Shown here: positions 32,129 through 37,124 of the stretch, in pieces
Layout: every line of letters begins with the position of its first letter
Position numbering within the stretch: position 1 is the first letter of the stretch
Origin: a virus
Virus genome (UHGV): UHGV-2188828
DNA: 40,714 nucleotides
Direction: 5' to 3' (one strand)
The notes under the pieces: generated by a model
Seen by the model: only the letters and a program-made list of their open reading frames with translations
The model's database searches: none
What the model was told of the DNA's origin: nothing
Made by a program: the position numbers and the translations under genes

Positions 32129-32569
32129 ATGGAATTTATAACAGTAGAACAATTTCAAGAACAGCCTTTAGAAGTACAGAAAGTATTTATAGATTGGTGG
32201 AATTGTGAACCTCACGATATATATGCTTGGGCTATGGATTCAAAATGTAATAAGTGGTGCATGGAAAGTTGTAGTAATCAGATTCAGGCTGATACGATAA
32301 ACAAAGGTAAAGCAGTAGATTTTTGTATCCCACTATTTACAGAAGGACAAATTAGAAGGTTTATAGAGGATAAAGCAGAGTGTATATTAGACATTACAGT
32401 TGCAGATTTAATTAGCAATTGTAGGGTTTACACTGTAATAGGATGGAGAATTAAAGAATCAGAAAACGGAGCAGAATTTGAAGAAATATTGATTGAAGAA
32501 TATGCAATAGAAAATGATTTGCTTCAATTATATTGGAAAATAGCTTGCAGGGTAGCAAAGGAGGGATAG
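32129..32569 (+). CDS. hypothetical protein
   Basis: 146 aa after RBS TAGGAGGG. Confidence 0.45.
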   Translation: MEFITVEQFQEQPLEVQKVFIDWWNCEPHDIYAWAMDSKCNKWCMESCSNQIQADTINKGKAVDFCIPLFTEGQIRRFIEDKAECILDITVADLISNCRVYTVIGWRIKESENGAEFEEILIEEYAIENDLLQLYWKIACRVAKEG

Positions 32570-32570
32570 T

Positions 32571-33041
32571 ATGGATAAAGATCTATTCAGAAGAACAGAA
32601 GGACTTTTATATGATTATAATAATTTAGTTACACAAATAGAGTTGTTAAAGCTGGATATAGAGGATATGAAAAGAGAATATGCAGGATGTGGGGCAATAG
32701 AGTATAAAGAGAAAACAGGAGGAACGAATAAATTTAATAGTAGTGTTGAAAATGAAGTTCTAGAAAAAGAAAGAATATTAAAGGCTTACAGCAGTGATTT
32801 AAGTAGAAAAATTAGGTTAAAAAGAAGAATAGATGCAGCAATAGAGAACTTAAAGCATGAAGAGAGAAAGTTGATAGAGTTAAGATATACAAATAAGAGA
32901 AAGTTAAGTTGGGAGCAAACAGCGTATATATTAAACTTTAATGAGGATTACTGTAGAAAAGAGTTAAGACCAGAGATAATAAAAAAGATGGCAGATATGA
33001 TATTTTATAATCCATATAAACAAGAAAGATTTAATGTATAA
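32571..33041 (+). CDS. ArpU-family late transcription activator (sigma-70 region-4-like)
   Basis: 156 aa MDKDLFRRTEGLLYDYNNLVTQIELLKLDIED...LIELRY fits the ArpU family pattern, and it sits directly upstream of the packaging module. Confidence 0.65.
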   Translation: MDKDLFRRTEGLLYDYNNLVTQIELLKLDIEDMKREYAGCGAIEYKEKTGGTNKFNSSVENEVLEKERILKAYSSDLSRKIRLKRRIDAAIENLKHEERKLIELRYTNKRKLSWEQTAYILNFNEDYCRKELRPEIIKKMADMIFYNPYKQERFNV

Positions 33042-33193
33042 AATTTTACCCCCGTTTTTCCCCCGAAATACCCCCGTTTCTCCCCCCTATTATTTGTGAT
33101 AATATAGTAATCGTAGAAAGCATGGACAGTTTTCATATGTCATGTGGCCTCCTTGGATTTTTAGACACCTAGTGTAAAAGCTAGGTGTAATAT

Positions 33194-33286
33194 GGAGATA
33201 TAACCCTAATTGGTAAGGGAGCAACTTGCTAAGTTGTCAGTAATCGAGTAATCGGTGTATAGGTTCAAGTCCTATTATCTCCGCCA
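33194..33286 (+). tRNA. tRNA-Ser (anticodon GCT), long variable arm, encoded CCA
   Basis: I folded it by hand. The acceptor stem is GGAGATA/TATCTCC, the D-arm CCCT-aattggta-AGGG, and the anticodon stem GCAAC/GTTGT with loop TTGCTAA. A 21-nt variable arm precedes a T-arm ATAGG-TTCAAGT-CCTAT, then G and CCA. Length 93 nt. Confidence 0.7.
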
Positions 33287-34002
33287 TAAGCCAACTATGA
33301 CCCTTATATGTTTAGTAGGTAGTATAAGGCGAGTGAAGCAATAAAAACTCTATCGACAGGCGGTAAGACCTTACCTACAGGCACGAAGCCGGATAGAATA
33401 AATCTCATAAATTCTCAATACCCTTTTATGCCAAAGGCACTTATAGGAATATAGGTGTCTTTACTTTTTATACGAAAGGATGATATATATGTTTAAATTC
33501 AATGAAATGATATCTAGTATAACTATTAATGCAACAGATAAGAAGAATCATAGAGTGCAAGGATGGTTCTTAAATTCTTTCGCTAAAGCAAATGAAAGGA
33601 GCAGAAAAAGAGATGAAGAAAATAACTAGAAAAGAATACATAGAAAGACAAAAGAAAGGTAAGGCAGTAAAGAGAACTAAAAATACTTACTGGGCAATAG
33701 AAGTTTAGCCTATAGGAGCCAGTAGAAACAAATAAGAAAGGAAGGTGTACCCCTTACACTAATTACCTTTTAATACTACTGGCTTTAAATATATAAAGAA
33801 AGGATTCTAGTAAGATAAGGTTCTTTTTTTATTGTTTTTAAGGAGGTAAAGACAGAAGTGATAGTCAAATGTATAAGTTGGCAGGAAATAGTATAGTTGT
33901 TGAAGTGATAGAAAAAATATTAAAAAAATTATTATATCAATAGTAATATTAAGAGCTCTATAAATAGGGCTCTTTTTCATTGCTTAGATTAGGGAGGTAA
34001 AA

Positions 34003-34371
34003 ATGAAGATATTTAGGTTAAAGGTTAATGCATCATCAGATGATTATAGAAAGATTAAAGAGAAGTTAGAAGAAGAATGTAATGAAAAAGTATTACTATT
34101 ATCTAAAGATATGGAATTAATAAATGATGTCTGCGGTATTAAAGAAGAGGATATAAGAATAACTGATGTACAACTTGAGGCAAATTCAATAAGTTATGAT
34201 GTTGGAATAGTAGAACATATTTTAGCAGGAACAAAAGTTAGCTTTGAATATAAAGATATAAGTGCCAATCTATTTATAAAGGGTAATAGACTATTAACCA
34301 TTAAGGAAATGAAAAGAGAAATAATTAATAGATTCTCGATACAGGAAATCAATGTTAAAGAAGATATGTAG
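34003..34371 (+). CDS. hypothetical protein
   Basis: 122 aa after RBS GGGAGG. Confidence 0.45.
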   Translation: MKIFRLKVNASSDDYRKIKEKLEEECNEKVLLLSKDMELINDVCGIKEEDIRITDVQLEANSISYDVGIVEHILAGTKVSFEYKDISANLFIKGNRLLTIKEMKREIINRFSIQEINVKEDM

Positions 34372-34723
34372 GTGTGGAAAAGTAATACCTTATAGCATGA
34401 AGAGGTGCCCTGAATGTGAAGCTAAGGCAGAAAAGGAACGCAAAGAAAATATAAGATATTATAAGCAAACCACCTATGATAGAGATAGCAAGTACAATAA
34501 GTTTTATAAAAGTAAGGAATGGATTAAAGGAAGACAACTAGCAATAGTAAGAGATCATGCACTATGTAGAGATTGTTTAGATAAAGATGTAATAACTCCA
34601 TATAACACAGTACACCACATAGTACCAATCAAAGAAGATTGGAGTAAAAGGTTAGATATAGATAACCTTATTTGTTTATGTGAGAGTTGCCACCAAAAGA
34701 GGCATAAAAGCATGAAGAGGTAG
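34352..34723 (+). CDS. HNH endonuclease (packaging-associated)
   Basis: CRCGKVIPYSMKRCPEC...HHIVPIKEDW...NLICLCESCHQKRH is an HNH with zinc-binding Cys pairs, directly upstream of terS. Confidence 0.8.
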   Translation: MLKKICRCGKVIPYSMKRCPECEAKAEKERKENIRYYKQTTYDRDSKYNKFYKSKEWIKGRQLAIVRDHALCRDCLDKDVITPYNTVHHIVPIKEDWSKRLDIDNLICLCESCHQKRHKSMKR

Positions 34724-34830
34724 GGGGGATACGAAAAGTATTGAACTTTCAGACGAAGAGTGCGAGTGGTCTGTTTTCTCGCAAAAACTCCCTTTATAAT
34801 ATTTTTTTAGGTTTGGAAGGAGGTAAGGTC

Positions 34831-35400
34831 ATGGGTAGAAATGCTCAACCAGTAGATTTATTAGTGGCTAAAGGCAAGAAACACTTGACTAAGGCCGAAA
34901 TAGAATCTAGAAAAGAAAATGAAATTAAGTTAGGAAATAAAAAAATAATCTGTCCTGGATTTGTAAAAAATGATACAGAAGCATATAAAAAGTGGAAAGA
35001 AATATTGAAAATTTATAAAGATTTTGATTTTGTTTCATCAGGTGATGTTGGATTACTAGCAAGGTATTGTAAAACATTTAGTGAGTATCAAGAATTATTA
35101 AAAGCATATCAGAGAGTGAAAGAAATTCATTATGATTCTTTAGAGCTTGAGGACTACTTAGAAGAATTTGATGAAGAAGGAAAAGCAAGGTTTGGCTATA
35201 AAATAAAAAAACAGCTAAGAGATATAATTTCTGTTAGTGGAATACTCTCCATAGAAACTGCTATTAATAAGAAAATGGATATGCTTATTAAGATGGAAGA
35301 TAGACTATTCTTAAATCCTTTAGCAAAAATAAAGAATGTTCCTAAGTCAACAAAAGATGATGATCCACCAAAAAGTAAGTGGTCTAATTTTGGAGGCTAA
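34831..35400 (+). CDS. terminase small subunit, P27 family
   Basis: MGRNAQPVDLLVAKGKKHLTKAEIESRKENE is a typical P27-family N-terminus. RBS GGAAGGAGG is 7 nt upstream, and the track ORF starts earlier at 34741. Confidence 0.75.
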   Translation: MGRNAQPVDLLVAKGKKHLTKAEIESRKENEIKLGNKKIICPGFVKNDTEAYKKWKEILKIYKDFDFVSSGDVGLLARYCKTFSEYQELLKAYQRVKEIHYDSLELEDYLEEFDEEGKARFGYKIKKQLRDIISVSGILSIETAINKKMDMLIKMEDRLFLNPLAKIKNVPKSTKDDDPPKSKWSNFGG

Positions 35401-35402
35401 GA

Positions 35403-37124
35403 ATGGACAGGGCCACCTTATTTGCTAAGAGCGTAGTAGAAGGAACTATAAACAGAGCAACAGGGGAACTTGAAATATTAGCTTGTAAAAGACATTTGAG
35501 AGATTTAGAAAGACAGGGAACAGAAGAATTTCCGTATATATGGAGTGAAGAGAAAGCTAATAACTTAATGAATTTTTCGGAAAATCTTACATTAGCTGAA
35601 GGTGATGAGCCAGCATTAATGAAACTATGGGACTTTCAATGTTTTGTATTTGGTTCTTGGAATGGATGGATACATAAGGATACTGGATATAGAAGATTCA
35701 GAACATCATATGAGCAAGTTGGAAGACAAAATGGAAAATCGGTTGGGAATGCAGTTCCGTCACTTTATTATGGTAATTTTGATGGTTACAATTATCCCCA
35801 AGTATATGCAACAGCAACAAAAGAAGCTCAAGCTAGAATAGTAGTTAAAGAGTGTTATAAGTTTATAAATGCAGATAAAGAGTTGAGTGGGACTAAAACA
35901 AGAAAAGGATTATTTACTATAAAAGATTATAAATCAGAAATAGAATGTAATTTAACAAATGGAACCATAAAGGCATTAGGTCGCGATACTGATAGTATTG
36001 ATGGATTTAGGCCTTATTTTGGTTCAGTTGATGAATATCATAAACATAAAACAAATCAAATGTACAAATTATTGACAGATGGAACAAAGAAACTTAAGCA
36101 ATGTTTAGTAAGTGTTATAACAACTGCAGGTTTTGATATAAATTCACCATGTAAAGAATTATACGATTATTGTGTTAAGGTTCTGAAAGGTGTGCATCAA
36201 GATGAAACACAGTTTATTTATATATGCCAGTTAGATAAAAATGATGATATATGGGATGAAAATAATTGGCCTAAGGCTAATCCACTATGGACAGAGGAAA
36301 CTTTAAATAGTTTAAGAGCAGATGCAATCAAAGCAAAGGAAATGCAAGGAGAAGAACTTAGAAACTTTATGACTAAAAGTCTTAATATGTGGGTTCAAAT
36401 GTCAGATGACGATTATATAGATATAGAAAAGTGGAAAGAATGTGCTAGTGATTTAACTCTTGAAGATATGAGAGGGAAAGAGTGTGGAGTAGGACTTGAT
36501 TTATCAAGTGGTGGAGATTTAACATCAGCAGCTCTAGAATTTGAGTTGGGAAATGATGAGTATTTTATTGAGAGTCATAGCTTTATTCCTAAAAATAGAC
36601 TACTAGAGCATATACAAACAGATAAAGCGCCATACGATATGTGGGTAAAAAAAGAACTAATAACGGTAACAGAAACTCTTGGAGGAGTAAAAACAGATTA
36701 TAAATATATAATAAATTATTTAAAACAGTTGCAGAAAGAATATGATTTGAAATATCGATTCATAGCATATGATCCACATAATGCAGATGCATTTTTGAAC
36801 GATTTAGAATCTTTTGGTTGTGATTGCATAGAAATTATTCAAAGTGCTAGAAACTTAAATAGTGCTACAGTAGATTTTCAATTATCTGTAGATGGAAAAG
36901 CGATAAAGTATAATAGAAAAAATGCTTTATTAACTTGGAGTATAGCTAATGCTAAATTAACTCATAATTCATTTGGAGAATGTAAGATAGATAAAAATTA
37001 CAGAACTAAGAGGATAGATCCTGTTGATGCGATAATAGATGTTCATAAAGTGATGATAGAAAATAAATCAACAATAGATATAAACGAAGTTACAGAAGAT
37101 TACTTAAGTATGATGGGATGGTAA
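35403..37124 (+). CDS. terminase large subunit
   Basis: 573 aa with an N-terminal ATPase and C-terminal nuclease, in the canonical position after terS. Confidence 0.85.
   Translation: MDRATLFAKSVVEGTINRATGELEILACKRHLRDLERQGTEEFPYIWSEEKANNLMNFSENLTLAEGDEPALMKLWDFQCFVFGSWNGWIHKDTGYRRFRTSYEQVGRQNGKSVGNAVPSLYYGNFDGYNYPQVYATATKEAQARIVVKECYKFINADKELSGTKTRKGLFTIKDYKSEIECNLTNGTIKALGRDTDSIDGFRPYFGSVDEYHKHKTNQMYKLLTDGTKKLKQCLVSVITTAGFDINSPCKELYDYCVKVLKGVHQDETQFIYICQLDKNDDIWDENNWPKANPLWTEETLNSLRADAIKAKEMQGEELRNFMTKSLNMWVQMSDDDYIDIEKWKECASDLTLEDMRGKECGVGLDLSSGGDLTSAALEFELGNDEYFIESHSFIPKNRLLEHIQTDKAPYDMWVKKELITVTETLGGVKTDYKYIINYLKQLQKEYDLKYRFIAYDPHNADAFLNDLESFGCDCIEIIQSARNLNSATVDFQLSVDGKAIKYNRKNALLTWSIANAKLTHNSFGECKIDKNYRTKRIDPVDAIIDVHKVMIENKSTIDINEVTEDYLSMMGW

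Follow-up and report, generated by a model that had tools for sequence, protein, structure and literature searches.

Layout of the locus

We analysed the whole 40,714-nt stretch of the UHGV virus genome UHGV-2188828 (hereafter the window). On its plus strand, the early/replication block ends with ltr (32571..33041), a gene for a 156-aa RinA-family late transcriptional regulator assigned through TIGR01636, DUF722 and PHROG 36, whose stop codon lies at 33039-33041. The first-pass annotation had drawn attention to four phased tracts of C5-6 about 8 nt past this stop, and the sequence confirms both the tracts and their position: the first C is the 8th base after 33041, leaving 7 nt between. Positions 33049-33087 of the plus strand read CCCCCgtttttCCCCCgaaataCCCCCgtttctCCCCCC, with runs of C5, C5, C5 and C6 whose starts are exactly 11 nt apart. 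Written as a pattern, the array is CCCCCG-N5-CCCCCG-N5-CCCCCG-N5-CCCCCC, and we number its units site 1 (CCCCCG, 33049-33054), site 2 (CCCCCG, 33060-33065), site 3 (CCCCCG, 33071-33076) and site 4 (CCCCCC, 33082-33087).

The window has a GC content of 30.2%, and C makes up only 10.8% of its plus strand. Runs of C5 or longer occur seven times in the 40.7 kb, four of them inside the array, against ∼0.5 expected for independent bases. All three copies of the hexamer CCCCCG in the window fall within the array, and the pattern C5-N6-C5-N6-C5 appeared in none of 100 dinucleotide-preserving shuffles. The C-tract array is real and far beyond chance, as had been estimated for a genome of ∼30% GC. A search of the whole window for further arrays of the form CYMCCR (the subfamily consensus derived below), for example before the lysis genes, found none.

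The array is followed by a predicted late promoter. Its extended -10 element, TGaTAATAT (33097..33105, plus strand), was recognized by conservation and begins 9 nt past the last C of the array; transcription is predicted to start near 33112. With this start, the proximal site of the array would occupy about -31 to -26, nearer to the -10 than a normal -35. No -35 is present, as the position at a 17-nt spacer reads TTTCTC. T33095, T33097, G33098, T33100, A33101 and T33105 are invariant across 11 aligned relatives, and the core TGnTAnnAT plus AGTATCATAGAAA also trails repeat arrays in distant loci. A generic sigma-70 promoter scan did not call the late promoter because it lacks a -35, a result that says nothing against activator dependence.

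From the alignment, we predict a late leader of ∼80 nt (33106..33193, plus strand) that contains TGGACAG (33123-33129) and a hairpin, ACACCTAG-TGTAAAAG-CTAGGTGT (33165-33188). The leader is 92% identical to that of locus L050 and 78% identical to that of L131. TGGACAG is the window copy of a motif, GTGGACAGG, that the CYMCCR subfamily conserves ∼10-20 nt past the -10 (alignment of the window with L050, L131, L132, L130, L005, L006, L008, L060 and phiCp-A), and more distant clades keep AGTATCATAGAAA at this place. The conservation of motifs past the -10 suggests that sequence constraint acts on the initially transcribed region.

The first gene downstream of the predicted promoter is a tRNA-Ser(GCT) (33194-33286, plus strand; ARAGORN, and Rfam tRNA at 52.5 bits), which accounts for the tRNA noted earlier in the region past the late regulator. 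Late-timed expression of the tRNA would follow from this position. A tRNA also comes first behind the late leader in L001 (3523-3614), L002 (3603-3676) and L131 (about 1336-1410). It is Ser-GCT in the window and phiCp-A, and Asn in phiSM101 (as annotated) and L131 (GTT anticodon read). L132 has the same tRNA 5' sequence as L131 before its contig ends, and L050, whose regulator is 99% identical, has the same hairpin followed by a T-run where the window has its tRNA. Upstream of the tRNA-Asn of phiSM101 lies an unannotated tRNA-like fragment, ggaaggcctcc...ggttcgaatccaatgccttcc (L002 3480-3520), with the look of an acceptor and T-arm.

The non-coding DNA after the tRNA (33287-33480) is 75% identical to L131 1411-1586, and L005, L006 and L060 contain short parts of it as well. 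The conserved stretch 33287-33475 was not significantly structured relative to shuffles (z -1.27). Over 32400-34500, Rfam at E <= 1 returned only the tRNA and a sub-threshold Phe-leader on the plain terminator at 33916-33980. Two overlapping lysine-rich ORFs of 49 and 38 aa follow (33480-33629 and 33592-33708), ahead of the first late ORF of sizeable length, and neither of them matched a PHROG family.

Two terminator-like hairpins lie between the predicted promoter and the structural genes. One, at 33433..33462 on the plus strand (GGCACTTATAGG...TAGGTGTCTTT with a T-run), has the same consensus as hairpins found after the late -10 in other loci, and the second is at 33951-33974. Among loci gathered by a search for TGnTAnnAT plus a lag-11 signal, a terminator-like hairpin with the 3' arm (A/G)GGTGTCTTTT lies within 130 nt past the late -10 in 12 of 29 non-redundant loci, compared with 4 of 145 random windows. 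These loci include L066, L088, L040, L129, L019 and L121, and the hairpin often sits directly before the RBS of the first late gene. The window carries two copies, one at 33165-33188 that has no T-run and abuts the tRNA, and one at 33433-33462 in which the T-run is kept. Given their position past the late -10, late transcripts would need to read through such hairpins. They may represent a terminator of the early operon, a 5' stabilizer or a sign of Q-like antitermination by Ltr.

The packaging module (34352..37124, plus strand; identified from ORFs, Pfam and homology) is presumably driven by the late promoter. It starts with an HNH endonuclease (34352-34723; Pfam HNH), followed by TerS (34741-35400) and TerL (35403-37124; Pfam Terminase_4 in the module, and TerL by homology with annotated relatives). 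The three genes lie 1.3-2.3 kb downstream of the array on the same strand, with the hairpins at 33433-33462 and 33951-33974 in between.

The regulator Ltr

The protein encoded upstream of the array had been taken for an ArpU-family activator. Its matches are instead to RinA (TIGR01636; 30.6 bits, narrowly below the NCBIfam trusted cut-off of 31.9), Pfam DUF722 and PHROG 36 ('transcriptional regulator', E 7e-29), and not to ArpU. RinA and ArpU both belong to the Ltr superfamily. The phiSM101 homologue, 45% identical to Ltr, is annotated via TIGR01636. Pairwise similarity to RinA of 80alpha is marginal (E 0.054).

In an AF2 model of Ltr (pLDDT 84.6), residues 16-41 and 54-92 form a long helical hairpin, and residues 96-145 make up a C-terminal domain of three helices. 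This domain can be superposed on sigma region 4, with a TMt of ∼0.7 for region 4 of SigA and 0.62-0.64, at 26-27% identity, for region 4 of sigmaE on -35 DNA (2h27). These good TM-scores hold at the domain level only, the whole-chain Foldseek E for the sigma-4 match being at least 0.2 and thus not significant. A profile search of the PDB with the Ltr family gave no meaningful match, so that the sigma-4 likeness appears only by fold comparison.

This likeness raises the question of whether Ltr is a true alternative sigma subunit, as the annotation of phiCp-A would have it, with the C-tracts serving as -35-type elements. Homologues are variously called 'RinA family protein' (for example, P0030), 'sigma factor' or 'RNA polymerase sigma' in their source records, residues 74-133 of Ltr give a weak sigma70-ECF match, and the place of a -35, which this promoter lacks, is taken up by the array. 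However, a sigma-2-like domain is absent from the model, in which the N-terminal part is the long two-helix hairpin, and whole-chain comparison with ECF sigma factors is poor (TM 0.31-0.37, rmsd 13-28 Å). The extended -10 is of the housekeeping type and stays invariant across clades while the repeats change, and sigma factors do not read a -35 as four phased copies. Published work treats Ltr proteins as DNA-binding activators (PMC3753634). Because of the missing sigma-2-like domain, the invariant housekeeping-type -10 and the four phased sites, we consider a sigma subunit unlikely.

Repeat arrays in related Clostridium loci

Among deposited phages, the C. perfringens phages phiCp-A and phiSM101 are nearest. 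Downstream of the 'sigma factor' gene of phiCp-A come four copies of ATACCC with an 11-nt period and then TGtTATTAT; downstream of the RinA-family gene of phiSM101 come AACTTTGT repeats, again with an 11-nt period, and then a -10. We inspected the DNA past the stop codon in more than 125 loci that encode a homologue, all from Clostridium or related prophages and viral contigs. Most have three or four direct repeats past the stop, with a unit that differs by clade, and then TGnTAnnAT-AGTATCATAGAAA. The clade units include ACGTAAAA, TTGTACCG, TTTTCGATCA, ACAGTTTT, CACCAAT and ACTTTT.

Ordered by the identity of the regulator protein to Ltr of this phage, the closer relatives form a graded series. 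Whereas the window has CCCCCG, CCCCCG, CCCCCG and CCCCCC, L050 (99%) has CCCCCCG, CCCCCG, CCCCCG and CCCCCt, and L132 (87%) has CCCCCG three times and then tTCTCC. The sites are CCCCCG, TCCCCG, CCCCCA and CTACCG in L131 (71%), and CTACCG, TCCCCG, CTACCA and CTACCA in L130 (69%). Nine loci at 58-63% have CTACCG, CTACCA, CTACCA and GTACCG, the phiCp-A group (55-57%) has ATACCC four times, and L060 (49%) has CCCCCA, taCCCA, CCCCCA and taCCCA. From the window to the phiCp-A group, each array ends 8-9 nt before an invariant TGnTAnnnT. Across the alignment of the series (11 relatives), invariance is limited to the CC in each of the four sites and to T.TG.TA...T in the -10. This gives CYMCCR as the subfamily site, of which the window carries an all-C version.

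In the relatives at 58-63% identity (including L005, L006, L008, L009, L010, L011, L051 and L052), one or more ORFs separate the ltr stop from the array, by 114-1570 nt. Despite these insertions, array and -10 core remain joined, which links the array to the promoter. By their placement between the regulator and its predicted operator, the insertions resemble morons.

Comparison of the window (33049-33096) with L050 (2975-3023) revealed turnover of the array units. One array has the 'gaaata' spacer behind unit 2 and the other behind unit 3, and the C6 tract closes one array and opens the other. The distance from the array to the -10 differs by 1 nt, with four copies in both. The pattern points to slippage within the array or to unequal exchange there, under what would be selection for four phased sites; we read unit turnover at a constant four copies as selection on copy number and phase.

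To look at periodicity across the family, we took 90 non-redundant loci and scored self-match at lags 3-26 between stop-25 and stop+70, with shuffles for comparison. This analysis needs no anchor, whereas fuzzy matching to a 22-nt consensus of the -10/start proved so strict that neither the window nor its closest relatives were recovered. Self-match at lag 11 was 0.42 versus 0.333 in shuffled sequences, with z>3 in 19 of the 90 loci, and at lag 22 it was 0.404 (15 loci). No other lag between 3 and 26 showed an excess in these loci, lags 10 and 12 being flat, and four control offsets in the same 90 loci gave no lag signal. In most of these non-redundant relatives the array lies directly after the regulator stop. 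The phased array thus belongs to the downstream region of the gene family and not to this phage alone.

These comparisons bear on the first-pass view of the tracts as a textbook G-quadruplex (G4) motif with an i-motif on the plus strand. The pattern itself stands: the minus strand reads G6-N6-G5-N6-G5-N6-G5, which matches the canonical regular expression (four G3+ runs with N1-7 loops). For the isolated G-rich strand, ViennaRNA with G4 energies gave a G4 at -38.8 kcal/mol as against -3.9 kcal/mol without the G4 terms, values that are indicative only because they use RNA parameters. The pattern and the predicted fold make folding in vitro plausible, although it is probably incidental. A more demanding reading is that the array was selected for a template-strand G4 or plus-strand i-motif that pauses or blocks transcription or replication at the early/late boundary. 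The G5-6 tracts with 6-nt loops, the favoured G4 fold and the great rarity of C5 runs in this genome would all agree with it.

That reading did not survive the check for the motif at the same position in related phages that had been proposed along with it. The G4 pattern occurs only in the window and its 99% relative L050 and is absent at 87%, 71%, 69% and 58-63% identity, in relatives that keep the array. L132 and L131 have three C-runs each and L130 has one; the relatives at 69% and 71% have CTACC in place of C-runs, and those at 58-63% have no run of C3 or longer. The canonical pattern was found in 1 of 90 non-redundant homologous regions and a relaxed one in 4 of 90, and other clades have the AT-rich repeats ACGTAAAA or AACTTTGT at the same place. 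The features that are conserved instead are the 11-nt period, the unit number and the position abutting the -10. Furthermore, RNA across the tract is C-rich, which makes an RNA G4 impossible, and the only duplex opening indicated is promoter melting further downstream. A literature search on G-quadruplexes at phage late promoters returned nothing relevant. Because conservation fails and the conserved features fit a protein array on one face of the DNA, we regard selection for a G4 or i-motif as highly unlikely, and the folding potential as a side effect of the all-C site of this clade. As a caution, a protein site in an AT-rich genome can yield a textbook G4 motif as a by-product.

A related proposal is that the homopolymeric operator adds structural control, either through a G4 or i-motif that forms on unwinding and modulates Ltr binding or promoter firing, or through C-run slippage that alters the spacing from operator to -10. 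We give this very little credence. If true, C-run slippage would shift the timing or level of late expression. A redistribution of C5 and C6 tracts and a 1-nt spacing difference can already be seen between the window and its 99% relative.

The tract could also act in RNA, by loading Rho (rut-like) or as another kind of 3'-UTR element, so that the early transcript would end past ltr. C-rich RNA favours Rho loading, the C-rich, G-poor tract lies directly past the last early gene, and a scan of 33042-33100 found no intrinsic terminator, including between the stop and the array. Yet homologous arrays elsewhere are AT-rich or contain G, an array can sit more than 1 kb from the ltr stop while still attached to its promoter, and no Rfam family matches the region. 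A role in RNA is therefore very hard to reconcile with the family as a whole, and we hold it to be extremely improbable. The tract itself was rejected as an intrinsic terminator, as it consists of direct repeats and has no inverted repeat.

Equally remote is a packaging signal, that is, TerS-binding repeats or a part of a cos/pac region, as had been suggested with terminase/pac recognition. TerS proteins often recognize phased repeats, and the array lies 1.3 kb before the HNH gene and 1.7 kb before terS. However, the array lies at a fixed 8-9 nt from the -10 core and, in most loci, in a fixed relation to the ltr stop, whereas the interval to terS varies widely: in the window it contains a tRNA and small ORFs, in L130 it contains ORFs without a tRNA, and in L131 other genes. 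The repeat sequence also co-varies with a helix of Ltr, as described below. We found no support for terminase or pac recognition, and the varying distance to terS speaks strongly against a cos/pac site. Nothing was found in support of a recombination hotspot, which had also been raised. Replication iterons were rejected on account of the fixed link to the -10 and the co-variation with the regulator helix.

We tabulated the segment aligned to the last two helices of Ltr (the predicted recognition helix) against the repeat in ∼76 distinct loci. Helix segments and repeat units fall into matching groups, a relation that is correlative only. The segment NEDYCRKELRPE goes with CCCCC, SQEYCRKDLR with CTACC, NKDYCRKELRPK with ATACCC and DGDYCG(R/K)I with a TACG-type repeat. 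Likewise, DKDYCTKL is paired with ACAGTTTT, DKDNCCK with CACCA and NKDYACEL with AACTT. The common DYCRK segment accompanies the invariant CC.

A candidate operator for late transcription

The first-pass annotation had listed a protein-binding array for the late regulator among several possible roles, and this is the one that the data favour. RinA, LtrC and ArpU act through direct-repeat operators, as shown by experiment in staphylococcal and enterococcal phages (Quiles-Puchalt 2013, PMC3753634). The known systems are RinA of S. aureus 80alpha, phi11 and phi29, LtrC of phi55 and ArpU of E. faecalis phiFL2A (PMC3152322; PMC3753634). Mutagenesis, chimeras and EMSA showed two to four repeats of 7 nt to be necessary and sufficient for specificity (PMC3753634). 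The validated RinA repeats of 80alpha read TTGGCAGTaaaGTGGCAGT directly past the rinA stop and, like the array here, have an 11-nt period. As at our locus, a small regulator is the last gene of the early block in these systems; two to four short direct repeats come right after its stop, upstream of terS and the late operon, at our locus the presumed one; and the repeat is regulator-specific and co-varies with the protein's C-terminal part.

There are also differences. The host genus here is Clostridium, the repeat has a 6-bp core rather than 7 nt, and the homopolymeric-C site CCCCCG is not reported for staphylococcal or enterococcal sites. Four copies directly abut an extended -10, and a tRNA and terminator-like hairpins intervene between the promoter and the packaging genes. 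Unlike that of RinA of 80alpha, to which Ltr has only marginal similarity, the operator here is predicted from sequence. A literature search on RinA in C. perfringens phages returned nothing relevant.

Four imperfect direct repeats upstream of a late start have also been described for Ltr of S. aureus phi13 and Alt of TP901-1, where they are needed for activation and span -107 to -42 at P23 of phi13 and -76 to -32 at Plate of TP901-1 (summarized in PMC13123087). The repeat unit of phi13 is 18 bp, and the array in the window reaches nearer to the -10, to about -26. The cited papers describe Alt and Ltr of phi13 as distinct families, and the comparison with Ltr of the window concerns architecture.

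Because position, copy number, period, neighbouring gene and co-variation all fit the experimentally validated class, we conclude that the C-tract array is very probably the cognate operator of the RinA-family Ltr encoded just upstream, at a late promoter without a -35. Sequence, shuffles, relatives, lag-11 self-match and helix co-variation together define 33049..33087 (plus strand) as a predicted Ltr operator array of four direct 6-bp sites with an 11-bp period. We infer Ltr binding, the start site, the stoichiometry and the contact with RNA polymerase in the following model. The four direct 6-bp sites, with the subfamily consensus CYMCCR, are spaced 11 bp apart, approximately one helical turn, so that they lie on one face of the DNA, and would span roughly -64 to -26 of a promoter with a good extended -10 and no -35. 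Ltr would be produced at the end of early transcription and would bind these sites via a helix-turn-helix domain at its C terminus that resembles sigma region 4. It would probably do so as an oligomer, joined through the long N-terminal helical hairpin. Bound Ltr would then recruit or stabilize host sigma-A RNA polymerase at the -10 and so turn on late transcription, with a transcript that would extend through leader and tRNA-Ser to the HNH, terminase, head, tail and lysis genes.

Overall, these data propose a concrete function for a striking sequence, which would mark the early-to-late switch of this Clostridium phage, laid out as regulator, four sites, a -10-only promoter, a tRNA and the packaging genes. 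Beyond the papers we searched, they point to an 11-bp period of the Ltr operator across ∼90 Clostridium phage lineages, to a common -10/start core of TGnTAnnAT followed by AGTATCATAGAAA and to site sequences that diverge along with the predicted recognition helix. Such activator/operator pairs would offer orthogonal tools for Clostridium genetics, and the conserved layout would allow late promoters in such prophages to be annotated by a simple rule.
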